Source of the DNA: Flavobacteriales bacterium
GTDB taxonomy: Bacteria; Bacteroidota; Bacteroidia; Flavobacteriales; UBA7430
Assembly: GCA_965183875.1 (NCBI GenBank)
Contig: CBCYMK010000028.1
Span: 37,531-101,530 of the forward strand
DNA length: 64,000 bases
Direction of reading: 5' to 3'
This document shows, piece after piece, positions 5,914 through 64,000 of this stretch. Both the position numbers and the translations under genes were made by a program. Positions within the stretch are counted from its first letter, which is position 1, and each line of letters opens with the position of its first letter. The notes below the pieces were generated by a model that saw nothing but the letters and a program-made list of their open reading frames with translations, searched no databases and was not told the DNA's origin.

Positions 5914-7182
5914 TTAGATTTTATCGAATCCACAATAAGGTACAAGCACCTCCGGAATGTTTATTCCTTCTGCATCTTGATAGTTCTCGATTAATGCTGC
6001 CATAATACGTGGTAAGGCAAGTGAAGAACCATTTAAGCTATGGCACAATTGTGTCTTTTTATTCTCGTCTTTAAAGCGCAGTTTTAATCGATTACTTTGG
6101 TAGCTCTCGAAGTTCGAAACAGAACTTACTTCTAACCATTTATCTTGCGCTGCGGAGTATACCTCAAAATCAAATGTTAAGGCAGAGGTAAAGCTGAGGT
6201 CACCACCACACAGTCTTAAGATTCTAAATGGCAAGCCCAATTCACGAAGTATGTTCGCTACGTGCTCTACCATAGTATCTAAGGTTTTGTATGAGTTATC
6301 TGGGTGCTGAATTTGAACAATCTCAACCTTATCGAACTGGTGTAAACGATTTAAGCCTCTTACATCTTTCCCATACGACCCTGCTTCTCTGCGGAAACAA
6401 GGGGTGTACGCAGTACATTTAATAGGGAATTCTTCTTTCTTTACTATTACATCTCTAAAGATGTTTGTTACAGGAACCTCAGCAGTTGGAATAAGGTATA
6501 AGTTATCTGCTGTAGCATGGTACATTTGCCCTTCTTTGTCGGGTAGTTGTCCAGTACCAAAACCTGAGGCTTCGTTAACTAAATGTGGAGGCATTACTTC
6601 CTCGTATCCAGCATCGGTGTTTTTATCTAAAAAGTAGTTTATAAGTGCGCGTTGTAAACGTGCCCCTTTACCGCGGTAAACAGGGAATCCAGCACCAGTT
6701 ATTTTTACTCCTAACTCAAAGTCAATGATGTTTTTTTCTGCTACCAATTCCCAGTGAGGTTTTGCATTTTCGCCCAAGTTAGGTAGTGCTCCTTCTTGAC
6801 TAACAACCTCATTATCTTCCTCACTTTTCCCTGCAGGCACTGAAGAATGTGGGATGTTTGGAATTTGAGTAAGTTTGTTTTGTAGCGCTTCTTGAGTCTC
6901 AGCAAGTACTAAATGTAAGGCTTTTGTCTTCTCTTTTAATGCTGCCGTTTCCGCCTTTTTTGCATTGGCTTCTTCAATATTACCAGACTTATAAAGCATA
7001 CCGATTTCTTTCGATAGCTTATTCGATTCTGCTAAAATAGCATCGTTTTCCGACTGAGTTGTACATCGTTTTTCATCCAGTAAAAGAAGCTCTTCTATGA
7101 TGTCTTTAGCATCAAAGTTTTTTACCGCCAATCGTACGATTACTTCTTCCTTATTCTCTTTAATATACGCTACTTGTAACAT
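5914..7182 (-). CDS. serS: Seryl-tRNA synthetase
   Basis: 422-aa ORF. N-terminal coiled-coil arm and class II motifs FRREAGSYGKDVRGLNRLHQFDKVE and NGSSLALPR. Confidence 0.95.
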   Translation of the reverse strand: MLQVAYIKENKEEVIVRLAVKNFDAKDIIEELLLLDEKRCTTQSENDAILAESNKLSKEIGMLYKSGNIEEANAKKAETAALKEKTKALHLVLAETQEALQNKLTQIPNIPHSSVPAGKSEEDNEVVSQEGALPNLGENAKPHWELVAEKNIIDFELGVKITGAGFPVYRGKGARLQRALINYFLDKNTDAGYEEVMPPHLVNEASGFGTGQLPDKEGQMYHATADNLYLIPTAEVPVTNIFRDVIVKKEEFPIKCTAYTPCFRREAGSYGKDVRGLNRLHQFDKVEIVQIQHPDNSYKTLDTMVEHVANILRELGLPFRILRLCGGDLSFTSALTFDFEVYSAAQDKWLEVSSVSNFESYQSNRLKLRFKDENKKTQLCHSLNGSSLALPRIMAALIENYQDAEGINIPEVLVPYCGFDKI

Positions 7183-25509: not shown

Positions 25510-26331
25510 GGTTATACACACTTTAGTATGTGTTTTTTGCTACTTCTATAATTTGTTTAACTTTATTTTTTTAAAAATCCATCTTAGATTATAATGAGAA
25601 CTTTATTTAAAGTACTTCTTCTGTCTTTTTTTTTAGTTGTTATTCCAAAAACAACTGCCCAGAATAATACCTTGAGTTTTGATGGGATAGACGATATTGT
25701 AAGCCTAGGCGATAATAATATCCTACAAGTATCCGGAAATACATTGTCTATTTCTGCTTGGATAAAAGCAGAATCTTTCGCAGCTAATCTATGGCAGAAT
25801 ACTGTTATAGACAACCACTTTACTTTGGATGGTTATGTACTGCGTGTAGGTGGCAATGGTGTAGTTGACTTTGTTATAGGAGATGGAACTTGGCATTCTG
25901 TAACTAGCGATGATTATGCTATACAAACTAATATATGGTATCATCTAGTTGCTTTGTATGACGGGACTACTCAAAAAATATATGTGAATGGAGTGCTTGT
26001 AGCAAGTGTTACAGCAACTTTTACTTTTTTGCCAGGCACACATGTCACTACTATTGGTGGGGCTTCACTTCTTGAAAACCGTTTTTTCGATGGGCAAATA
26101 GATGAGGTAGCTATTTGGGATACCGCATTGTCTAGTTCTGAAGTTACCACCTTATTTAATTCAGGTATTCCTGTGTCTGCTACCTCAGTTGGTTCAGGTT
26201 TGCTTGCTTACTACTCCATGAATAGTAACAGTGGTGCGGGGTCACTTTTAACAGATGATGAAAATACAGGAACCGATTACGACGGTACTATATATGGCGC
26301 TAGTTGGGTTGTAGGCGGTCCCGATGCTTTG

Positions 26332-26634
26332 GCACCAACGGCTGTGTTTTCTTCAGCTACAGATAATGTAGGTTCGGTAACCGGAGCTCTAAGTTCGGGC
26401 GATACTACAGACGATACTGCTTTAGTGCTTTCGGGAACTAACGAGTCAGCTTCTACCGTACAAGTGTACAATGGCAGTACTTCTTTAGGAGCAGCAACTA
26501 TTAGTGGAACTACCTGGTCTTATACCGCCACAATTTCCGATGCCACTACCTATCTATTTAATATTACAGAAACCGATACGGCTGGAAATATTAGCGATGC
26601 GACCAGTGATTTTACAGTGATTGGAGATTTTACG
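26332..26634 (+). repeat. Intragenic 303-bp (101-aa) Ig-like repeat, copy 1
   Basis: APTAVFSSATDNVGSVTGALSSGDTTDDTALVLSGTNES... A 95-nt run (26344-26438) is identical to 27607-27701. Confidence 0.9.
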
Positions 26635-27594
26635 GCACCAACGATCACATCGGTTACCGCCGATTGGGGAGCTTACCTGAGTACGGTAGAAGACAATGCG
26701 AGTAAAGCGGTTACTGTAGTAACGAGTGGAGCTGAAGATGGACAAACAGTTACGCTTAGCCTAAATAGTGTAGATTATACAGGTACAGTAGCTTCAAACT
26801 CAACAAGTATTACCGTATCTGCCGCGGCTTTACAAGCCTTGGTATACGACAGCTCTTATACTTTAACTGTTAATGTGTCTGATGCTGCTGGGAATACAGC
26901 AACAACGCACAACTCAACCAGTTTTACTTCTTTAAATAGTACGGGAGTTAATAATACTTTAGATTTTGATGGTGTTGATGACTATGTGAGTATTCCAGAC
27001 AATAGTACATTGGATTTCACAACTGCAATGACAGTTGAATTATGGATGAAACCGGATAACTTTAGTAAAACTTGGGAAGCGATTGTAACAAAAGGTGATA
27101 ATTCGTGGAGAATTCATAGAAATGCCGATGAAGACAAAGTAAATTTTGCTATCAACAACACATCTTTAACTAATTTCTCGGTTACAAGTACATCAACTAT
27201 AACAGATGGTGTTTGGTATCACGTGGTTGGTGTTTATACAGGATCTCAATTAGAAATTTACATTAACGGAATACTAGAAAATACTACTTCGGTTTCAACA
27301 ACTATAAATAATAGTAGTTATAATGTTTGTATTGGTGAAAACTTACAAGCCACAGGTCGACAATTTAATGGCCAAATAGATGAAGTAAGAATTTGGAGTG
27401 ATGTTCGAACATCTTCTGAAATTACTGCTAGTATGAATACAGAACTAACTGGATCGGAAACAAATTTGGTTGCCTATTATCAATTTAACGAGACCTCAGG
27501 TTCTGTAGCTGCAGAGGGCGTAAATAATTATGATGGAACTCTCGTAAATATGGCTAGCGAAGACTGGGTAACTGCAAATTGGCAAGATATTACC

Positions 27595-27897
27595 GCTCCC
27601 ACTGCAGTGTTTTCTTCAGCTACAGATAATGTAGGTTCGGTAACCGGAGCTCTAAGTTCGGGCGATACTACAGACGATACTGCTTTAGTGCTTTCGGGAA
27701 CAAACGAATCTAGTGGAACCGTACAAGTTTATAATGGCAGTACTTCTTTAGGCGCTGCAAGTATTTCTGGTACAACTTGGACTTATACAGCCACTATTGC
27801 CGATGCCACTACCTATTTGTTTAATGTAAAAGAAACCGATATAGCAGGAAATACAAGCGATGCGACCAGTAATTTTACGGTGGTTGGAGACCTTACC
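27595..27897 (+). repeat. Intragenic 303-bp Ig-like repeat, copy 2
   Basis: Same 101-aa unit, directly tandem with copy 3. The 5' part is identical to copy 1 and the 3' part is nearly identical to copy 3. Confidence 0.9.
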
Positions 27898-28200
27898 GCA
27901 CCTACGGCAGTATTTTCTACTGCAACCGATAATGTAGGTTCGGTTACCGGTGCTTTAAGTTCAGGTGATACTACTGATGATACTGCTTTGGTACTCTCGG
28001 GAACAAACGAGTCTGCTTCTACCGTACAAGTGTACAATGGCAGTACTTCTTTAGGCGCTGCAACAATTTCTGGAACTACTTGGTCTTATACCGCCACTAT
28101 TGCCGCTGCCACCACTTATCTGTTTAATGTTACCGAAACCGATATAGCAGGAAATACAAGCGATGCTACCAGTAATTTTACGGTAGTTGGAGATTTTACA
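27898..28200 (+). repeat. Intragenic 303-bp Ig-like repeat, copy 3
   Basis: Same 101-aa unit. The central part (gcttctaccgtacaagtgtacaatggcagtacttctttagg) matches copy 1 and the 3' part matches copy 2. Confidence 0.9.
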
Positions 28201-31200
28201 GCGCCTACTATTGCTGTTACAGCTGCCGAAGTTTCTGACGGCGATACCTCTAGCGATGCTAGTTTATCCCTTACTTTTACCATTAGTGAGACCACTACAA
28301 ATTTTGTAGTCGGTGATATAACCGTTACAGGTGGTACCCTTTCGAGTTTTACGGGTAGCGGAACTATATATACCGCTACTTTTACTCCAAGTACAGCCGG
28401 AGCTACAACTATAGATGTTTCGAGTGCTACTTTTACCGATGCTATTGGGAATGCTAATACTGCAGCTAGCCAATTTAATTGGCTTTATGAAATCCCAGTT
28501 CCTTCTATCACAAGTTTTTCTCCAACTACAGGTGCTGTAGGCTCGAGTGTAACCATAAGTGGAACTAATTTCAATGCAACAGCGGCTAATAATATCGTTT
28601 ATTTTGGTGCTGTAAAAGCTACTGTAACTGCAGCCACATCGAGCTCCTTAACCCTTACGGTGCCCAATAGTAGTAGCCATTCTCCCATTACTGTAACTAC
28701 AGGTGGTTTAGTTGCAGCTGCCATGAGTCCATTTTTAGTAACGAATACACTTATAAGTACAGTATCGGTAAATAATAGTTCTTTTGCAGATATTAGTACT
28801 TATAGCTCTGTAGCAGGAAATTCAACCTGGCACCAGGTTGATAAATTAGTTGCCATTGCCGATTTTGATGGAGACGGAAAGCCCGATGTAGTGAAAACGG
28901 GAACTGGAAGTACAGTAATGGTACATTTAAACACCTGTACAGAAGGTGAAATTGATTCCGATACTTTTGATAGCGGTACTGCCTTTGCTACAAATGGATC
29001 TGGGCAGTCTATTGCTACAGCAGATTTTGATGGCGACGGGAAAATGGACCTCGTCTCTTTAGATATTAGCACAGCCTCCTTTTTAAGAAATACCTCTACT
29101 GTTGGTTCTATAAGCTTTGCAACAAAAGTAGATTTATCCATATCGAATAAGTATAGAGTTCGTTGTGCCGATATAGATGGCGATGGAAAAATAGATATTG
29201 TTGTAGCCCCTAATTATGCCTACACCTACTCCTGCGATGTTTATTTAAATACCAGTTCTGTAGGTAGTATTAGTTTTTCTTCTTCTGCTACTAATTTTGT
29301 GTTTCCTATTTCTCATGGGCGCCGCATTGAGCTCGGGGATATAAACATGGATGGAAAGTCAGACATTGTGGCTTTTAAGGGAAGTGGAGTAGATATACTA
29401 TTGAATACCACTACAACCACAGGCTCCCCTACATTTTCTTCTGTTATTTCACTAAGTGGGAATGGTATGCTTGGTGCTATAGCCGATTTTGATAGCGATG
29501 GAGACAATGATTTTATTTCTGACAATGGGTACCTACATCAAAATAATATTTCAGGTGCGGTTACTTCAGATGATTTTTCAAATACAACGATTACCAATAT
29601 AGCTTCTTATGCGAAAGTTACGGCAGGTGATTTTAATGCCGATGGAAAGGTAGATATTCTTACAGGTTATAATAATAGTGGTGCTAAGACACAATTCTTA
29701 CTAAATGAAATTGTAGGGACTACCATTACAGGGACTTCATTTACAAATTATGAAAAATCCAATCAAGGAAATGAGGGTGATGTACTAGTTTGTGATATTG
29801 ACGGTGATGGAAAACCAGAAATTATTTCTTCTATGTTAGGTAGTAGTTCTTTTGGAGTTTTTAGAAACCAAATGTATCAGCCACCAACCATTTCTAGCAC
29901 TACTTTGTCTGCAGACAATACAAGTATAGACGTAACATTTTCTGATGCAGTGTATACCACTACGGGCTCTTCGGGGCTCGCTTCTAGCTTCCGATTTTAC
30001 GCTGTCCATTGCTGGTGGTGTAGCTACAATTAATGCTACACCTAGTAGTATTAGTAGTTCCGGAAATGTGTATACTTTAGGTCTTAACCTTACAGGCACT
30101 CCCAATGGAGTAGAAGTTTTAACGGTTGCTCCCGCAAGTACTACTGCAATTTACAATGCAGTTGATGTAGCTGCCGAAACGAGTCAGTCTAATAATACCA
30201 TTACTTTCCCTTATTCTACCTGGGATGGTTCAACAGACAACGATTGGAGTACTGCTGCTAATTGGTCAAGTTCTTCTATTCCTACATCATCTATTATCCT
30301 CTCTATACCAACTGGCTTAAGTAATTACCCAACTATAGCTACAGGTACATCTGCAGTGTCAAAAACCATAGCAATGGCAAGTGGAACCTCTTTAATAGCT
30401 TCAGGGACTGCCACCTTATCGGGTGATATTACCTATACTCGTGGTGGTTTAGGAACCGATTGGCATTTAGTTTCTACACCTGTAGTAGGAGAAGATTTAG
30501 CCGATGTTATTTCTAATTGTACTTTAGCTACGGGTACTGGATCTAATGTAGGCTTGGCGATTTATAATAATAGTACACCCGCTTGGGAGTATTGTGTAAA
30601 TTCTTCTACAGGAGCTATGTCTTCTGGCTCTGCATACTCTGTAAAGCTAAGTTCTGGGGATCTTTTGTTTACTGGAACTATGCCAGAGGCAGATGTGTCG
30701 GCAGTAACTTCTGCGGGTTCCACAAGTTGGAATCTTATTGGTAATCCTTACCCTTCTTATATTGCTATTAATAGCAGTGCCAATTCCACCAATTTTATTG
30801 GAGAAAATACTTCGAATTTAGAAAGTAGCTATGTGTCTATTTATGTGTGGGATGCGAGCACTTCTCAGTATGCTGTAATCAACCAAGCCTCAGACGCTTG
30901 TTATTTATCTCCTGGGCAAGGCTTTTTTGTGAATGTTAACAGTGGGGTGAGCTCACTTGCGATTACAGAATCTATGCAGAGTCATCAATCTTCAGAAACA
31001 TTTTATAGATCGGGAAGTACTAGTCCAACAATAAAATTACTAGCTACTAAAGGTGATTTGACAAAAACTACCACTATAAAATATTTCGAGACTGCCAGTA
31101 CAGGCTTAGATATAGGTTACGATGCTGGCTTGTTTACAGGAGGTTTAGATCCTTTCAGATTGTCCACTTTTTTAGTGTCCGATAGCGAAGGAATAGAGTT

Positions 31201-37772: not shown

Positions 37773-40700
37773 ATGAAAAAAGTATTAACTCTTTTATGTT
37801 GTGTAGTTTTTGGTGTTTATTCAATCCAAGCACAAGAAGTAACTAGTTGTTCGGCCGGTGAAGTTGGAGTAGTGGTTGCACTTTCTTTTACACAAGACTT
37901 TCCTGCAGGACAAGTAACCTGGGATATTCAAGATGCTGAAGGGAATGTTTTTGCCACCAATCCCTTCGTTTATGCAGCGAATTTCGTGTATACTTCAACA
38001 GAAGTTTGTTTACAAGAGGGACAAACCTATACCTTTAATACCTACGATTCTGGTAATGATGGTTGGGGTTCTGGTTCATGGTACACCTTAGGTATTTGTG
38101 GAGGTTATAATACCTTAATAGATAATAATGGTTTTCCTCCTAATGGATCTGGTACTACCGAATCTTTTACCCTTCCTATTGTAGAAGATAACTGTTTTTG
38201 TTTTAGAGCCAATTACGAAATTGTAAGTGCGTCGAGTTCGGTTGCTACAGACGGTGGTGCTATTGTTACTACCTATGGTGGGAACGCTCCATTTACCTAT
38301 TCTTGGTCTAACGGAACTACAAATCAAAATTTAACTGGCGTAGCTCCAGGTAATTATATTCTTACAATTACAGATTCTGAAGGGTGTGAAGTGGTTGAAA
38401 TTGTAGAAGTTCAAGGTGCTAGTGTGTTCATGGGGCCTTATGATATAGATATTTGTACTGGGTACTTTTACGATTCAGGCGGGTCTAACGATGACTTTGA
38501 GTCGGGAGAGGATTATGTGATGACCATCTGCAGTGATGATCCTGCATTGAGTACAGGATTAACATTTTTTGATTTTGATTTAGGTGGTTCAAACTGGAAC
38601 TCTTGTACCTTCACTATTTACGACGGTCCTAATCCACTTGCACCAGTATTGTATTCTTTTGACAGCCCTAACGATCCACCACCAGGAATAATTACAGCTT
38701 CTAGTGAGAATGTATCGGGTTGTTTAACCGTACATTTTACCTCTCCTTTCGGATTAGAACACGATGGTTGGTTTGCAGAGATTAACTGTCAATTCCCATG
38801 TCAAGACTATGAAGTAAATATTTTATCAAGCGATGAAATTGATGCTGAAAATGTGATTGATGTATGTTATGAGTTAGAGCTTGAGGTAGAAACCAATTAT
38901 TTTGAAAACAATACATTCTATGAGCAGTCCGATGTGACTACAAGTTTCGATTGGACTTTTATCGATGGAGATATTGTACAGTCTGGTCAACAAGTATCTC
39001 AGGTTTATGATGCCGATACAGAATCGGAACTTACTCTTGTGGTTACCGATATTAACGGATGTTTCCAGAATTTTAACTTTACTGTAATTAACGATCATCC
39101 AGAGGTATTAACCTCTATTATACCCCCTACTGAAACTGAAGTATGCCCGGGCACAGAAATCGAAGCTTATAGTGGTCTTTATGCTGGAACAGATAGTTTT
39201 ATATCTACCTTTTTTGTCCCTATTGTATGGCCTGTTCTAGAAGAGCAAGTTGAAGTAGGTGTCGATTTTGCCGAACCTATTTATTTACCAGATGGACTAG
39301 AATCCTATACTTCGATATTAGAAATTACCGCTTATGAAGACGGTTCTGTCCTCGATGGGAACGATTTTACTGAGGTTTGTATTGAGATTGAACACTCTTA
39401 TATAGGTGATTTAGATGTCTCTCTTACTTCTCCAAACGGGACCTTAGTGCAGCTGTTCGATCAGTCTGGTGGCGGTACCTGGTTAGGAGATGCAATCGAT
39501 AATAATAGTGAGGAAATTGCGGGTGAATGTTGGGAGTACTGTTGGTCGGTTACACCCGATTTTGGGACTTTCTCCAATGAAAATGGGAATACCATGACGG
39601 CTCCAATAAATGGTGGTAACTCCATGATTCCTGGGGCATATACTCCCTCAGGAAATTTTTCTGACTTTGCTGGTTCTGATGCAAACGGAAACTGGGTACT
39701 TACTGTAACAGATAATTTATTGATTGATAATGGTTTTATTTGTGGATGGAATATTGCTATGTCTATCCAAGATGAAGAAAATGGTGGAGATCCAATTGTT
39801 GTAGATTCTCTAGTTCCTACAATTTTGAGCTATAACTGGTTTTGCGATGAGGAGCCTTCTTCTGTAGTTATGTACGATTCTACTATGGTTCTTGTGCAAC
39901 CTACTACATCTGGTGAACACAATTACGTAATGACTATTTTAGATAGTTATGGTTGTGAGTATACCGAAGAATTTATGGTTGATGTATATGGTACACCTAT
40001 TTTATCTGACGATGCAGTTATTGCTTGTGAAGATAATTTCTTATTGGAGGCAACCGATGTTCCTCCAGGTGGTGGTATATGGTCTGTGGTAGATTCTCCT
40101 GCGGGTTCTACCGTGACTTTTGATCCTGACAATAGTTCCTTAACACCTACTATAGTGGTAAGTGAAACGGGTGATTATGAGTTTGAATTTACTGAGTTTA
40201 CCTGTGGAGCTTCTAACGATGTAGCCCTAGATTTTGCGGTTGTTTATCCTATAATAGAAACGCCAGAGGATCTAATTTGCTCCCTAGAAAATACGCTCGT
40301 GGTAGATAATCCATCTAATAATACAGGTCTTTGGACTATTGCTACTGGAGATTCTATTCAGATATTAACCGATTCTACCCTAAGTACAATTAATGTGTTG
40401 GCACCAGATTTTGGTTCCTATACCATGACTTATACCATAGATTTCTGTGAAGGTTCAGATTCTGTTGAGGTTAATTTTATTACCGTAGATCCAGTTATTT
40501 CTCCTCCAGGAGTACAGATTTGTGCCTTTGAAGTAGATTTTGAATTAGACAACCCTTCACCTACCGGTGGAATGTGGGGGGTTGTAAGTCAACCAAATCA
40601 TACCTCTGTTGAGTATAGTAACCTAGCAGCTGATGGTGTTTCTATTGAAGTAAGTCAGTTTGGAGCTTATGAAGTTGCTTTCGTAATTGCAGGATGTAAT

Positions 40701-41264
40701 ACCACAGATACTATGCAAGTGGAGTTTAGACAGGCTGTACCTGTGGTGCACACAGACGAGCTTTTAAGATGTGAGCTAGATGCAGAAATGTATGTAGAGT
40801 CTTACGGTTTAGAAATAGGTTGGATGCAAATTGCTGGGCCTAGCTTTGCTAATTTCTCAAATCCTTTAGGACAAGAAACCAGTATGTCTGTTTCAGAATA
40901 TGGTGATTATACGCTTGCTTATACGGCCTGTGATACAACAGTAGCATTTAATGTTTTGTTTATGTGCGACCTTGTTGTGCCGAATGTAATTACTGCAAAT
41001 GCAGATGATCTTAACGATGTGTTATTTGTTGAAGGACTTACTCCCGAGTATTATAGCTATGCCAATATGAGTGTTTTTAACCGTTGGGGAGACGAGGTGT
41101 ATAGATCTGGTCACTATGGTTTAGATGGAGATTGGTGGGATGGCCAGTCTAGTCACCAAAATGATGACTTGGCAGAAGGGATTTATTTTTATGTGTTAGA
41201 AGTAGGAAATAAGGTTACCGAAGAAGTAGATGTTTATAAAGGTTCGGTTCACCTATTTAAATAA
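37773..41264 (+). CDS. Large surface protein with proprotein-convertase P-domain and gliding-motility-type (T9SS type B) C-terminal domain
   Basis: 1163-aa ORF with a signal peptide. SprB-like repeat PFTYSWSNGTTNQNLTGVAPGNYILTITDSEGC. P-domain pattern HSYIGDLDVSLTSPNGTLVQLF...NGNWVLTVTDNLLIDNGFICGWNI. C-terminal VPNVITANADDLNDVLFVEGL...FNRWGDEVY...GIYFYVLE. Confidence 0.8.
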   Translation: MKKVLTLLCCVVFGVYSIQAQEVTSCSAGEVGVVVALSFTQDFPAGQVTWDIQDAEGNVFATNPFVYAANFVYTSTEVCLQEGQTYTFNTYDSGNDGWGSGSWYTLGICGGYNTLIDNNGFPPNGSGTTESFTLPIVEDNCFCFRANYEIVSASSSVATDGGAIVTTYGGNAPFTYSWSNGTTNQNLTGVAPGNYILTITDSEGCEVVEIVEVQGASVFMGPYDIDICTGYFYDSGGSNDDFESGEDYVMTICSDDPALSTGLTFFDFDLGGSNWNSCTFTIYDGPNPLAPVLYSFDSPNDPPPGIITASSENVSGCLTVHFTSPFGLEHDGWFAEINCQFPCQDYEVNILSSDEIDAENVIDVCYELELEVETNYFENNTFYEQSDVTTSFDWTFIDGDIVQSGQQVSQVYDADTESELTLVVTDINGCFQNFNFTVINDHPEVLTSIIPPTETEVCPGTEIEAYSGLYAGTDSFISTFFVPIVWPVLEEQVEVGVDFAEPIYLPDGLESYTSILEITAYEDGSVLDGNDFTEVCIEIEHSYIGDLDVSLTSPNGTLVQLFDQSGGGTWLGDAIDNNSEEIAGECWEYCWSVTPDFGTFSNENGNTMTAPINGGNSMIPGAYTPSGNFSDFAGSDANGNWVLTVTDNLLIDNGFICGWNIAMSIQDEENGGDPIVVDSLVPTILSYNWFCDEEPSSVVMYDSTMVLVQPTTSGEHNYVMTILDSYGCEYTEEFMVDVYGTPILSDDAVIACEDNFLLEATDVPPGGGIWSVVDSPAGSTVTFDPDNSSLTPTIVVSETGDYEFEFTEFTCGASNDVALDFAVVYPIIETPEDLICSLENTLVVDNPSNNTGLWTIATGDSIQILTDSTLSTINVLAPDFGSYTMTYTIDFCEGSDSVEVNFITVDPVISPPGVQICAFEVDFELDNPSPTGGMWGVVSQPNHTSVEYSNLAADGVSIEVSQFGAYEVAFVIAGCNTTDTMQVEFRQAVPVVHTDELLRCELDAEMYVESYGLEIGWMQIAGPSFANFSNPLGQETSMSVSEYGDYTLAYTACDTTVAFNVLFMCDLVVPNVITANADDLNDVLFVEGLTPEYYSYANMSVFNRWGDEVYRSGHYGLDGDWWDGQSSHQNDDLAEGIYFYVLEVGNKVTEEVDVYKGSVHLFK

Positions 41265-41285
41265 CGATTAGCATTTAATAGATAT

Positions 41286-41318
41286 AAAAAAAGGGACTCG
41301 TTTTGAGTCCCTTTTTTT
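41286..41318 (+). terminator. Rho-independent terminator of the 1163-aa surface protein gene
   Basis: Stem gggactc/gagtccc, loop gtttt, T7 run. An A7 run upstream makes it formally bidirectional. Confidence 0.8.
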
Positions 41319-41326
41319 GTCTTATT

Positions 41327-41371
41327 TCAAAAGAGTCAAAAGAGTCAAAAGAGTCAAAAGAGTCAAAAGAG
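41327..41371. repeat. 9-bp microsatellite (tcaaaagag) x5
   Basis: Five perfect head-to-tail copies at the start of unit A. Only two copies (41644-41661) sit at the start of unit B. Confidence 0.95.
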
Positions 41372-41643
41372 TCTTTCTGTCAGGCGGTCTTTTAAAGACT
41401 GAAGTCTATTAGTTGTTGGTTTCTCGTTGTTGGTGGTTTTGTCACACTGATTTTGTCGAAAAATATCAGTAGATAAAGAGCCTGATACCTGTTTTTTCTA
41501 CTCCCTAACTCTGACTCCTTTTTTAAATCTTCTGAACTTTCTTTTAAAAAAATGACACAGAGTTTCACTGAGAAAATTGAGCTACACAGAGGTTTTTATT
41601 TTTTTGAATTATGTATCCTTACTCCTGTATCCTATCTTTATTG
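41327..41643. repeat. Non-coding tandem unit A (~317 bp)
   Basis: Collinear with 41644-41950 over nearly its whole length. Shared blocks include tctttctgt, attagttgttggtttctc, agataaagagcctga, cctgttttttctactccctaactc, ccttttttaaatcttctgaactttcttttaaaaaaatgacacagagttt and acacagagg. Confidence 0.85.
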
Positions 41644-41950
41644 TCAAAAGAGTCAAAAGAGTCTTTCTGTTAAATAGCCTTTTAAATACTGGTTGTATTA
41701 GTTGTTGGTTTCTCTTTGTTGGTGTTTTTGTGGCACTGAGACTGTAGAAAAGCCTCAGCAGATAAAGAGCCTGACACCTGTTTTTTCTACTCCCTAACTC
41801 CTTAATTCTTATTCCTTTTTTAAATCTTCTGAACTTTCTTTTAAAAAAATGACACAGAGTTTAATTGTGCAAATTGAGTTACACAGAGGGTTTTATTTTT
41901 CTGACTACTGACTACTGACTACTGTGTCCTTCTTACTCCTTTAACTTCTA
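41644..41950. repeat. Non-coding tandem unit B (~307 bp)
   Basis: Second copy of unit A, roughly four-fifths identical by eye, with small indels. Confidence 0.85.
41901..41924. repeat. 7-bp microsatellite (ctgacta) x3.4
   Basis: ctgactactgactactgactactg, near the end of unit B. Absent from unit A. Confidence 0.9.
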
Positions 41951-41952
41951 TC

Positions 41953-42540
41953 TTAAACCTTCATCATTCTGGCAACATATTTTCCAATAATATCGAACTC
42001 CAAGTTTACAGTATCGCCTTGTTTAAGGTTTTTGAAACATGTATTCTCATATGTATAAGGAATTATACAAACAGAAAATCCATTTTCTCTGGAATTTACC
42101 ACAGTCAAACTAGTACCATTTACTGTAATAGACCCCTTTTCTACGGTAACTTCTGAAACTGATTTTTTATCGTATTCAAAACTAAAAACCCAGCTTCCAT
42201 CTTCTGTTTTTATGTTGGTACAGACCGCTGTTTTATCTATATGGCCTTGAACAATATGTCCATCTAAGCGTCCACCCATTTTCATACAGCGTTCTAGATT
42301 TACTACATCAGCAATTGCTATATTACCAAGGTTGGTTTTGTTTAAGGTTTCTTGAATAGCTGTTACAGTATAGCTGTTGTCCTTTATAGAGACTACTGTA
42401 AGGCAAACTCCATTATGCGCTACACTTTGATCTATTTTTAATTCTGGAGTCATTGTAGCTTCTATTGTAAAATGAATGTTCCCACCCTCTTTTACAATTT
42501 CTTTTACTTCGCCTAATTCTTCAATAATTCCTGTAAACAT
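41953..42540 (-). CDS. ribE: Riboflavin synthase (alpha chain)
   Basis: The internal start MFTGIIEELGEV was preferred over the track's 42576. Two lumazine-binding repeats (NGVCLTV and NGTSLTV). Confidence 0.9.
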   Translation of the reverse strand: MFTGIIEELGEVKEIVKEGGNIHFTIEATMTPELKIDQSVAHNGVCLTVVSIKDNSYTVTAIQETLNKTNLGNIAIADVVNLERCMKMGGRLDGHIVQGHIDKTAVCTNIKTEDGSWVFSFEYDKKSVSEVTVEKGSITVNGTSLTVVNSRENGFSVCIIPYTYENTCFKNLKQGDTVNLEFDIIGKYVARMMKV

Positions 42541-61002: not shown

Positions 61003-61026
61003 TGTTTTTAGACATATTCACTTTTT

Positions 61027-61052
61027 AGCATCTCTCTGAGATGCTTTTTTTT
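61027..61052 (+). terminator. Rho-independent terminator after the ArsR-family gene
   Basis: Stem agcatctc/gagatgct, loop tct, then a T-run. Confidence 0.75.
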
Positions 61053-61100
61053 GGCATATTTTTAGCATACGACAGAACACACAAACATACACATTACCCC

Positions 61101-64000
61101 ATGAAGAAAATTATGTACTTTTTTGTTTACCTCAGTGCTTTAAGCATAGCAGCTCAAACAACCAACGTAAATACCTTACTTAATACCACAAGTAAATTGC
61201 AATTGAGTTTTACCTCTGCTGAGATTCAATTATCTACCATAGAGCATAGAGCCGAATTCTATACGCAGATTTCTGTAGATGGTTTAACAAAGTCTTATGA
61301 TATAGGAAACCCAGATTTACCCGTTTTTAGTAAACTTATTGAGGTTCCTACTTCTGGAGATTTACAAGTGAATATTATAGATTCTTCAAAAAGAACAATT
61401 GACCTAGCTGCAATTGGTTTTCCTCAAGAGATCTATCCCTCACAGGTGTCAGTTTTTAAAAATCAAGACCCTAGTAAAATTCCTTTTACCTATAATGAAA
61501 ACAGCTATTCTTCTAACGAATTTTATTCTCAAGACTTAGTTAAAATAGAGCGTTTAGGAATTATGAGAGGCAAGTCTATTGCGCGTATACAAATAGCTCC
61601 CTTCGCATATAATGCAGTGATTAATCAACTTGAAGTAACTGAAGATTTAGTTTTTTCTGTAGATTTTGAAAATGTGATTAAGCTAGAATCTAAAGCGCTT
61701 AAATCACAGGATTTTGATATTAATTTTTCAAAACTAGTAAACTCTTCTATTGGAGAAAAGCACGAATTCTCTACAAATACCACAGGTATGATCATTCTTT
61801 CAGATCCAATGTTTGAAGAAGATTTACAAGACTTTATAAGCTGGAAAAGAAAAAAAGGCTTTGAAGTAATCGAAGCTTATAAAGGTTCCGAAGAGGTAGG
61901 TAGTACTGTGGAGAGTATGAAAGCATATGTGCAGTCGTTTTATGATAACGCTACAGCTGATAATCCAGCTCCCACTTATTTACTTATTGTTGGTGATCAT
62001 GAACAGGTACCTAGTTTTGATGCAGGTGACCATGTTTCTGATATGTACTATTGTGAGTTCGATGGAAATGGTGATTATTTCCCCGAGATGATTTTTGGTC
62101 GTTTTTCTGCTTCTACAAGTGCCGAATTATTAATTCAAATAGATAAAACTTTACAATACGAACAATATACTATGGCTAATCCGTCTTATTTGTCGGAAGT
62201 GCTTATGGTAGCCGGTGTAGATGGGAATTTTGCTCCTACCCATGGTAATGGACAAATTAATTACGGAACCGATTATTATTTTAATGCTGAACACGATTTA
62301 AGTCCTTACGTATATTTGTATCCAGAAACGAATTCGAATGCTGTCGAAACAGCAATTATTGAGCATGTAAGTCAAGGTGTTGGTTTTGCAAATTATACTG
62401 CCCACTGTAGCCCTGCAGGTTGGTCAGACCCAAGCTTCGAACTGTCTGATGTTGCCGGATTAAATAATGAAGATGAGTATGGCTTAATGGTGGGTAACTG
62501 CTGTCAGTCAAATACCTTTAATGGGGTGACCTGTTTCGGTGAATCTTTATTGAGAAAATCTAAAGGTGGAGCCGTAGGATATATAGGAGGTTCTAATAAT
62601 ACACTTTGGGACGAAGACTATTATTGGGGAGTAGGAAATGGTCCAATTTCGGCTAACCCTACCTACGAAGAAACTGGTTTAGCTGTTTACGATTGTAGTT
62701 TTCACGAAAATAATGAGCAAACTTCCGATTGGTCAATTACACAAGGACAGCTATTGCAGTCCGGTAACTGGGCTGTTACAGAATCGGGAAGTGGTAATAC
62801 ACAGTATTATTGGGAGATATACCATTTAATGGGAGATCCATCTGTATTAACTTATTTTGGTGTGCCATCGGTGCTTACTGTATCGCATCCAGAAGCACTA
62901 GTTGTAGGAATGTCTACTATTGCTGTGAGTACTGAGCAGTATACTTACGTTGCGATTAGTCAAAATGGAGTTTTGTTAGACGCATTATATACCGATGAAT
63001 CTGGGGATGTAACTTTGTCTTTCGATCCACTTAACACAATGGATAATCTGGATGTTGTAGCAACCAAGCAAAATAAGCAGCCTTATACTGGGCAGGTGAA
63101 TATGATGAGTTCTAATGCACCTTATATAGCTTGTTCTTCAATTGCTATAAACGATGGCTTGCTTGGAAATAATGAGGTTGAGTATAATGAAACTTTTTCT
63201 CTTGGGTTGAATTTACAAAATTATGGTGCTGTAGCATCTTCTCCTTTGTCGGTTGATATTAGCTCTTCTAATCCAAATATTACGCTTTCTTATGACTCTT
63301 TAAATACCGATTCTATTCCAGCAGAATCTTTCTTACAGCTAGATGATCTAGTTACTGTGTCTTTAAATGGTAATTTTATGGATCAGGAAATTGTTGCCTT
63401 ACAATTTACTATTGTTGATGAAGATGGAACAGAATGGGTGTCGACAAATAGTTTTGTGGTTAATGCTCCGCAATTAGAGTTTTCTTCTTCGGAATTATCT
63501 AGTGGGAATTCTACAATTTCTTTAGGTGAATCTGTCGACGTAATTTTCACTTTAGAAAATGTAGGGCATGCTACCTGTGAAAGTGGTGGTGTAGCTATTG
63601 ATTCAGAATTTCCTTCTCTAACAATTGACGTGGATGAAGTTCCTTTTTCTGCAATCGAATCTAATAGCCAATACACGGTTACCATACCAGTAACACTAGA
63701 GGAAGATGCTCCTTTAGGAGTACAGTATTCAATCTCTTTAAGTGCGGTTTCATTTGATAATTTTAATGCTGACTATACAGTTGAATTTAGCAGCCCTAAT
63801 TGTTCTCTGGAAAGTGTAGGGGTGCAGATTAATTTAACTTCAGATTATTATGCACATGAAACGGCGTGGACCTTAACGGATGCTGCTGGAGTCGTTGTAG
63901 GTGAGGTTGAATTAGGTTCCTTAAATTCAGAAGAGGTATATGAAGATGTATTTTGTATGGAGCCAAACTCGTATTGCACATTTGCTATAACCGACTCTTA
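61101..64000 (+). CDS. Peptidase C25 (gingipain-like) cysteine protease, 3'-truncated by the window edge
   Basis: Absent from the ORF track because there is no stop inside the window. Hand translation from ATG 61101 through about 62660 is open, and no track ORF interrupts this frame further downstream. Signal peptide MKKIMYFFVYLSALSIAAQ. Propeptide-like GNPDLPVFSKLIEVP. Catalytic-domain motifs YLLIVGDHEQVPSF, ANYTAHCSPAGW (His) and MVGNCCQSNTF (Cys). Confidence 0.85.
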   Translation, partial: MKKIMYFFVYLSALSIAAQTTNVNTLLNTTSKLQLSFTSAEIQLSTIEHRAEFYTQISVDGLTKSYDIGNPDLPVFSKLIEVPTSGDLQVNIIDSSKRTIDLAAIGFPQEIYPSQVSVFKNQDPSKIPFTYNENSYSSNEFYSQDLVKIERLGIMRGKSIARIQIAPFAYNAVINQLEVTEDLVFSVDFENVIKLESKALKSQDFDINFSKLVNSSIGEKHEFSTNTTGMIILSDPMFEEDLQDFISWKRKKGFEVIEAYKGSEEVGSTVESMKAYVQSFYDNATADNPAPTYLLIVGDHEQVPSFDAGDHVSDMYYCEFDGNGDYFPEMIFGRFSASTSAELLIQIDKTLQYEQYTMANPSYLSEVLMVAGVDGNFAPTHGNGQINYGTDYYFNAEHDLSPYVYLYPETNSNAVETAIIEHVSQGVGFANYTAHCSPAGWSDPSFELSDVAGLNNEDEYGLMVGNCCQSNTFNGVTCFGESLLRKSKGGAVGYIGGSNNTLWDEDYYWGVGNGPISANPTYEETGLAVYDCSFHENNEQTSDWSITQGQLLQSGNWAVTESGSGNTQYYWEIYHLMGDPSVLTYFGVPSVLTVSHPEALVVGMSTIAVSTEQYTYVAISQNGVLLDALYTDESGDVTLSFDPLNTMDNLDVVATKQNKQPYTGQVNMMSSNAPYIACSSIAINDGLLGNNEVEYNETFSLGLNLQNYGAVASSPLSVDISSSNPNITLSYDSLNTDSIPAESFLQLDDLVTVSLNGNFMDQEIVALQFTIVDEDGTEWVSTNSFVVNAPQLEFSSSELSSGNSTISLGESVDVIFTLENVGHATCESGGVAIDSEFPSLTIDVDEVPFSAIESNSQYTVTIPVTLEEDAPLGVQYSISLSAVSFDNFNADYTVEFSSPNCSLESVGVQINLTSDYYAHETAWTLTDAAGVVVGEVELGSLNSEEVYEDVFCMEPNSYCTFAITDS

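Follow-up and report, generated by a model that had tools for sequence, protein, structure and literature searches.

In the 64-kb window, which is the whole stretch of DNA that was analysed, the gene of a 1163-aa secreted or surface protein and ribE, the gene of riboflavin synthase, converge on a gap of 688 bp (41265-41952) that is the largest non-coding stretch of the window (Table 1). In the other five convergent pairs the genes lie -27 to 89 bp apart, and the remaining intergenic gaps of the window are mostly shorter than 150 bp. The original prediction, made from the letters of the DNA, had named these two flanking genes and had called a duplicated element in a gap of about 690 bp unexpected between convergent genes. 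Both statements were borne out, the first by the CHU_C domain of the 1163-aa protein and the lumazine-binding riboflavin synthase found on the other side, and the second by the convergent pairs of the window and by the much shorter gap of the closest relatives described below. A further match of the 1163-aa protein, to PKD, lay under the Pfam cut-off.

The gap contains one recognisable terminator, which begins 20 nt after the end of the 1163-aa gene. Between this terminator and the ribE stop codon lies a head-to-tail pair of units that fills 41320-41950.

Table 1 Features of the ribE locus, with positions counted from the first letter of the window
Feature	Position	Strand	Description
Gene of 1163-aa secreted or surface protein	37773-41264	+	CHU_C type IX secretion signal, P_proprotein
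Bidirectional intrinsic terminator	41284-41320	both	common to the surface-protein gene (+) and ribE (-)
Unit A	41320-41634		315 nt; opens with the TCTTATT junction motif
9-mer microsatellite TCAAAAGAG, x5.2	41327-41373		unit A; 100% matches (Tandem Repeats Finder)
Small hairpin AGAC-TGAA-GTCT	41396-41407		unit A; direct reading and fold
Hairpin with pairing kept	41446-41470 (A), 41735-41759 (B)	- (ribE-sense)	both units
50-nt identical block	41516-41565 (A), 41813-41862 (B)		longest identical run of the two units
Unit B	41635-41950		316 nt; opens with TCTTTATTG
9-mer microsatellite TCAAAAGAG, x2.3	41643-41663		unit B (Tandem Repeats Finder)
Small hairpin AATAC-TGGTT-GTATT	41685-41699		unit B counterpart of 41396-41407; direct reading and fold
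7-mer microsatellite CTGACTA, x3.4	41901-41924		unit B only (Tandem Repeats Finder)
TCTTA, first 5 nt of a third copy	41951-41955		3' of unit B; overlaps the ribE stop codon
ribE, riboflavin synthase	41953-42540	-	195 aa from ATG; lumazine-binding

Two tandem units between a shared terminator and the ribE stop codon

The terminator is built on a perfect 14-nt inverted repeat that consists of seven A/T pairs and GGGACTC/GAGTCCC, flanked by an A-run and, on the opposite side, a T-run, and it was detected on both strands. A G+C-containing stem, flanking A- and T-runs and retention in relatives are all found at this site. It is also the only terminator-like site in the region, and neither unit has a terminator of its own. 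On the ribE strand, both units thus sit between the stop codon and the sole recognisable terminator.

The tandem arrangement of the units was recovered by Tandem Repeats Finder as a period-289 repeat at 41353-41904 (1.9 copies, 84% matches, score 808) and by pairwise alignment with MAFFT, in which the two units show a column identity of 86%. The 284 ungapped columns are 84.5% identical and differ by 20 transitions and 24 transversions. The copies are adjacent and in register, and their likeness is above chance, as is required of a tandem repeat. The first 28 nt, which include the 9-mer array, are the same in both units, whereas the stretch of unit A that aligns to the CTGACTA array of unit B is unrepeated. 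The original prediction of two tandem non-coding units was confirmed by both programs, and Tandem Repeats Finder also recovered its 9-mer array of five copies in the first unit and two in the second and its 7-mer array confined to the second. The two long identical blocks that it quoted are both present, the longer one being the 50-nt block. Its unit boundaries (41327-41643 and 41644-41950) had to be moved by 7-9 nt, and with this correction the repeat fills the spacer exactly from the edge of the terminator to the ribE stop codon.

The sequence around the unit ends supports these boundaries. The left junction reads TTTTTTTG / TCTTATT / TCAAAAGAG at 41320, the middle junction reads CCTA / TCTTTATTG / TCAAAAGAG at 41635, and the right junction reads TTCTA / TCTTA / AACC at 41951, in which TTA corresponds to the ribE stop codon on the opposite strand. 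A TCTT(T)A-type motif is therefore found at the left, middle and right junctions, which is the pattern looked for in a duplication at microhomology. On the basis of this common motif and of the exact span from terminator to stop codon, the arrangement is best accounted for by a single local duplication of the whole spacer and not by two insertions.

Two further features of the region were examined and set aside. Each unit contains one G/T-rich tract (41408-41443 and 41698-41733), which in the ribE sense is CA-rich with CCAACAAC repeats. A Rho-utilisation-like C-rich tract in the ribE sense was considered here, but the C/G ratio of about 2.1, measured in 78-nt windows, is below the 95th percentile of the whole window (2.2) and is not distinctive. 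A replication terminus or dif site was rejected as well, as the GC skew tracks gene orientation and does not switch at the locus.

Repeats and surface-protein sequences also occur elsewhere in the window. A 1479-aa ORF at 25594-30033 contains three direct repeats of 300 nt (26332-26631, 27595-27894 and 27898-28197) that are 86% identical. Its product has the Pfam domains Laminin_G_3, Big_13, Big_12, TIG and FG-GAP, which identifies the 300-nt repeats as repeated domains of a large surface protein. The end of the 1163-aa gene that encodes CHU_C has a resemblance in a stretch of 26 nt at 61863-61888. This stretch lies within 61003-64000, where no plus-strand ORF of at least 90 aa is listed after 61002, and a long ORF running off the end of the window, of a sort that the listing leaves out, is likely there.

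The ribE spacer in relatives and the case for a local duplication

To place the block in its lineage, the same locus was compared in the closest relatives, whose ribE products are 88-90% identical by BLASTP, the nearest being 90% identical at the protein level. Besides the source itself, all close ribE sequences come from marine metagenomes (Tara, ENA and Logan) and are at most 90% identical, and the search returned none from the same species. In seven contigs of the closest relatives a convergent gene likewise follows the 3' end of ribE, and the gap measures 95-98 bp. Homology of this downstream gene to the surface protein was confirmed for L007, where the partial gene and the C-terminal portion of the 1163-aa protein share 72% identity. 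The gaps of the relatives are 93% identical among themselves where DNA was read, and nothing in the 46 nt that separate their ribE stop codon from the terminator resembles the units. In the more distant L001-L006 (ribE 86% identical), the downstream gene is a CTP_transf_like gene and not the surface-protein gene, which places a synteny break exactly at the 3' end of ribE. Their gap of 256 bp (about 6589-6845) has a different terminator and is unrelated to the units; a purine-rich resemblance of the units to the gap of L001 was dismissed as noise.

The terminator hairpin behaves differently from the spacer. The hairpin GGGACTCAAAACGAGTCCC is the same in the window, in L007 (4487-4521) and in L008, and it differs from the window by one to three bases in L009 (6630-6664), L017, L018 and L019. 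The same or nearly the same hairpin is thus kept while third-codon identity in ribE is only about 61-65%, with 61% for L007, and the small terminator common to ribE and the surface-protein gene looks strongly conserved on this sequence comparison.

Third-codon positions of ribE also give the order of the lineages. Every relative has an identity of 0.61-0.65 to the window, and the relatives show 0.68-0.98 among themselves, which makes the lineage of the window the outgroup to all relatives found. From an outgroup position, a gain of the block here is formally indistinguishable from a loss in the common ancestor of the relatives. The divergence of 15% between units A and B is far below the third-codon divergence between the lineages, and the duplication would be much younger than the lineage split if the units drift neutrally.

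Signals of independent expression were scarce in the region. The Bacteroidetes-type -7 box TAnnTTTG, which has a mean of 1.5 per kb in the window, does not occur on either strand of 41265-41952, and one weak sigma-70-like site was found where 3.4 are expected. The lack of a promoter and terminator of their own, together with the position of the units between the ribE stop codon and the sole terminator, leads us to infer that the block is read through as a 3' UTR of about 630 nt.

We consider it probable, with some reserve, that the block arose by local tandem duplication of an orphan spacer, that it forms such a read-through 3' UTR of ribE and that its microsatellites are products of slippage. 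The block is most likely the product of a passive and almost neutral duplication, and not a new RNA gene or mobile element. According to this scheme, the spacer between the ribE stop codon and the terminator would have measured about 315 nt in the window lineage, compared with the 46 nt of the relatives found. The whole spacer would then have been duplicated once, head to tail, through slippage or unequal exchange at a 5-6-nt TCTTA microhomology, with the TCTTA motif at the terminator edge and the ribE stop codon as the likely site. The copies would subsequently have drifted to their present identity, while replication slippage would have built the 9-mer arrays (five copies in unit A, two in unit B) and, in B alone, the 7-mer array. 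Partial gene conversion between the copies may have made their identity patchy. The outcome would be a 3' UTR with its end at the ancestral terminator and with little or no function of its own.

A repeat that runs exactly from terminator to stop codon is the expected appearance of a viable duplication of a whole spacer, and an unequal number of 9-mers in the two units is typical of unconstrained slippage. Nevertheless, several features speak against a neutral duplication. Divergence is not uniform, as the 50-nt run illustrates; one hairpin has kept its pairing despite many changes, and in a second, small hairpin both partners of one pair have changed with pairing retained. It would also be unusual for a genome whose other gaps are mostly shorter than 150 bp to carry about 630 bp of DNA without use. 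Finally, a local duplication accounts for the presence of two units and leaves the origin of the first 315-nt unit unexplained.

Possible signs of function and other proposed origins

The 50-nt run and the two hairpins just listed are features on which a functional RNA would rest. Here each unit would carry a structured element in the ribE sense (minus strand), made up of the hairpin and the 50-nt block and doubled by the duplication, which would act in cis on the stability or termination of the ribE mRNA or be cut from the 3' UTR as a small RNA. The location fits such a role, as a strong terminator follows the block on the minus strand, and small RNAs derived from 3' UTRs arise upstream of strong terminators in enterobacteria. 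The hairpin is a hot spot of change, with eight of 28 nt differing between the units, and its pairing is kept through seven substituted stem positions. In the ribE-sense RNA, eight of nine pairs form in unit A and nine of nine in unit B, compared with eight and seven on the plus strand. The substitutions include two double compensatory changes (U-A to G-C and U-A to C-G), and the accompanying G-U wobbles are specific to the minus strand, since they correspond to A-C mismatches on the plus strand. The original prediction had located this hairpin at 41446-41470 and 41736-41758 with one compensatory change; its coordinates hold, and the single change is replaced by the two double changes and the wobbles. 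In the small hairpin, one G-C pair has become T-A with pairing kept, as read directly and seen in the folds. The 50-nt block, invariant between the units, is longer than expected from shuffling of the mismatch positions (mean longest run 25 nt; P = 0.004).

The statistical weight of these observations is limited. When pairing was scanned over the whole alignment, none of 400 shuffles reached the value observed for the hairpin under the best-fitting settings (P < 0.0025), with P of about 0.03 under other settings, in a comparison of two sequences with settings picked after the hairpin had been seen. When only uninterrupted helices were strictly considered, the number of compensatory pairs did not exceed the null (P 0.15-0.5). 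The clustering of the mismatches, which leaves the 50-nt run free of them, would also be explained by patchy gene conversion between tandem copies. Neither the whole units nor their sub-regions fold better than shuffles on either strand (z-scores -0.8 to +0.8), and the hairpin is not followed by a U-run. A stem GGAYACAG/CUGUGUC with U7 after the ribE stop occurs in both units, but it encloses about 57 nt and is almost invariant, and thus proves nothing.

Searches for known RNA families gave no support either. Rfam yielded no match at gathering score in the whole window. Inside the units, with E values up to 10, the only match was a chance one to the eukaryotic snoRNA SNORA81 (E 3.4); the other matches near the units fell on the terminator hairpin, far below the gathering score. 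No tRNA or tmRNA was found. The absence of a homologue from every relative leaves no sign of selection over time. With two sequences and settings chosen afterwards, the hairpin and the 50-nt block are no more than suggestive of constraint, and we regard a functional RNA as unlikely, though deserving of consideration. More doubtful still is its specific form, a lineage-specific regulatory RNA module in the ribE sense, in which each unit would comprise the hairpin and the 50-nt block and end at the shared terminator. Such a module, whether it stays within the 3' UTR or is released from it as a small RNA, would have been recently born and already duplicated in an uncultured marine member of the Flavobacteriales. 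The original suggestion of a pair of small RNA genes was not sustained, given the lack of a promoter box, of a terminator per unit, of an Rfam match and of excess folding stability.

A second possibility, which we find improbable, is that the unit belongs to a dispersed family of non-autonomous repeats, MITE-like or similar, that landed beside ribE and has its other copies outside the 64-kb window. A length of about 300 nt fits such elements, and relatives lack the unit at this site, with no source found for it. Within the window, however, seed-based repeat finding, word-7 blastn and nhmmer detected no second copy; weak matches at 54.8-55.4 kb are non-collinear, lie within a 999-aa ORF and were attributed to chance. 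Sequence collections were scanned with exact patterns representing three conserved blocks of 19-22 nt. The pattern GAACTTTCTTTTN{5,9}TGACACAGAG had no match in the genome collection (one representative for each of 185,579 species) or in the metagenome and viral collections, CCTGTTTTTTCTACTCCCTA had none in JGI metagenomes and viral contigs, and TATTAGTTGTTGGTTTCTC had none in viral contigs. The source genome is absent from these collections, in which even the patterns of the query itself went unmatched, and the scans are accordingly a weak test of dispersal. BLASTN in distant mode matched the units to no phage or plasmid.

The ENA, Logan and Tara data, home to the relatives of this clade, were reached by using the spurious ORFs of the units as protein probes. 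Two word-indexed protein searches with the 58-aa and 41-aa ORFs returned no candidate there, and a phmmer search of 1.84 billion representatives with an 83-codon open frame matched a translated tandem repeat alone (E = 1.4e-4). The doubled 9-mer matched seven unrelated genomes, of Acidobacteriota, Undibacterium, Chlamydiales and Trichodesmium, with a likeness limited to the 9-mer and due to chance. One of these matches, in Trichodesmium erythraeum IMS101 (L016, 5467-5563), falls in an intergenic array of TGAATCTTT x6 with an adjoining 11-mer x3. This array is unrelated to the units outside the 9-mer.

The structure of the units also argues against a mobile origin. No inverted repeats form matched unit termini: those near both unit ends (I5 and I8) are A/T-rich and weak, with 79-80% complementarity, and the other long pairs are internal. 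Adjacent copies in register with microhomology at their junctions point to one local duplication and not to two insertions. The decaying repeat-family element that had been proposed at first thus finds no other copy in the 64-kb window or in any collection scanned. The original prediction had listed three results, a lack of transcription on either strand among them, that would together reduce the block to a neutral local duplication. Two of these were obtained, namely no homologous copies within the window and the collections searched and, as far as two sequences permit a test, no covariation beyond one hairpin, and they point to a neutral local duplication.

We also considered an assembly artefact, in which two strain variants of one spacer would have been joined at a graph loop formed by the 9-mer array. 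The source is probably a metagenome-assembled genome, its relatives are known only from metagenomes, and the identical 28-nt starts of the units, with their 9-mer array, could confuse a k-mer graph. However, the flanks are single-copy and syntenic, and the junction CCTATCTTTATTGTCAAAAG between units A and B would have to occur in reads. Divergence of 15% with indels is unlikely between strains whose flanking genes assembled as one sequence, and even a single unit would leave an orphan spacer of 315 nt. We therefore hold an artefact to be very improbable.

The least probable reading takes the units for genes of small proteins or for type I toxin-antitoxin modules of the LDR or SIB kind, or the 9-mer array for a site of protein binding. 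Both units have an ATG that stands in A-rich surroundings and is followed by MTQS..IELHRGFYF, and in both the G/T-rich tract translates to a hydrophobic peptide of 15-17 residues. However, the ATG frames differ in length between the units (41 and 20 aa), their shared part has four amino-acid changes to two silent ones and looks neutral, and the hydrophobic frame lacks a start codon, so that a conserved hydrophobic small ORF with a start codon in every unit, as in LDR or SIB, was not found. All six frames are rich in stops in both units, short ORFs of up to 58 aa differ in frame and length and are not common to A and B, the lengths of the A/B indels are not divisible by three, and the majority of substitutions would alter an amino acid. 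No protein similar to the open frames was found among 1.84 to 5.8 billion sequences, and the promoter box is missing. The original statement that the gap holds no credible ORF agrees with these results. As for protein binding, five exact 9-mers adjoin the terminator, but the copy number of five versus two and a period of 9 bp that does not match the DNA helical repeat speak against a binding site. The protein-binding array offered as one identity of the block found no support past the 9-mer itself, whose matches in other genomes share the 9-mer only and are due to chance.

Significance and comparison with known systems

Overall, what was predicted as an unusual duplicated block of about 0.6 kb is retained, and the three identities first proposed for it found no support. 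If the local duplication is the correct reading, the locus provides a small, clean example of a compact marine bacterial genome gaining 0.6 kb of non-coding DNA, and it matters little beyond that. The route would be the duplication of a spacer between two elements that must not be damaged, a stop codon and a shared terminator, followed by slippage and drift. The locus would also serve as a caution that tandem intergenic units are not to be read as RNA genes on anatomy alone. If the units did yield a stable RNA, they would constitute a regulatory element of very recent origin that is confined to one lineage, and the conserved surroundings would allow its birth and duplication to be dated. A lineage-specific regulatory RNA module, if real, would exemplify a regulatory RNA born from orphan DNA.

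Several known systems resemble the block in part. The LDR and SIB/QUAD loci of E. coli are tandem intergenic units, each of which is a type I toxin-antitoxin module with a conserved small hydrophobic ORF that has a start codon, an antisense RNA, and promoters and terminators of its own. The units described here share with LDR and SIB the tandem intergenic arrangement, a size of a few hundred bp and a seemingly non-coding nature, but not the conserved ORF, antisense RNA, promoters and terminators. Tandem pairs of small RNA genes are known as PrrF1/PrrF2 of Pseudomonas and OmrA/OmrB of E. coli, where each gene, equipped with a promoter and an intrinsic terminator of its own, is conserved between species. 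As in these pairs, two adjacent, diverged copies with a part kept identical lie in one intergenic region, whereas the present units lack a promoter motif and homologues in relatives, and their single terminator lies at the far end.

Dispersed intergenic repeats of the MITE and REP type, for which a review exists (PMC3184786), are similar in size range, in their intergenic position near gene ends and in their presence or absence among relatives. They differ from the block in that no terminal inverted repeats, G+C-rich palindrome or other copies were found here, nor any target-site duplication other than the junction microhomology.

The closest likeness in kind is to prokaryotic non-coding tandem repeats of the minisatellite or VNTR type, which share the head-to-tail intergenic copies, the slippage arrays and the lack of coding capacity. 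The block departs from the typical case in having two copies only, a unit of about 315 nt and a divergence that has already reached 15%. In its behaviour the locus is an ordinary bacterial non-coding tandem repeat or putative VNTR-type locus, variation between strains being what defines a VNTR. A survey of prokaryotic satellites found very few such repeats in most bacterial species and described transposition of non-coding satellites as rare (Subirana and Messeguer 2019; PMC6749651). The rarity of both satellites and their transposition in that survey fits the unique, untransposed locus beside ribE (PMC6749651).
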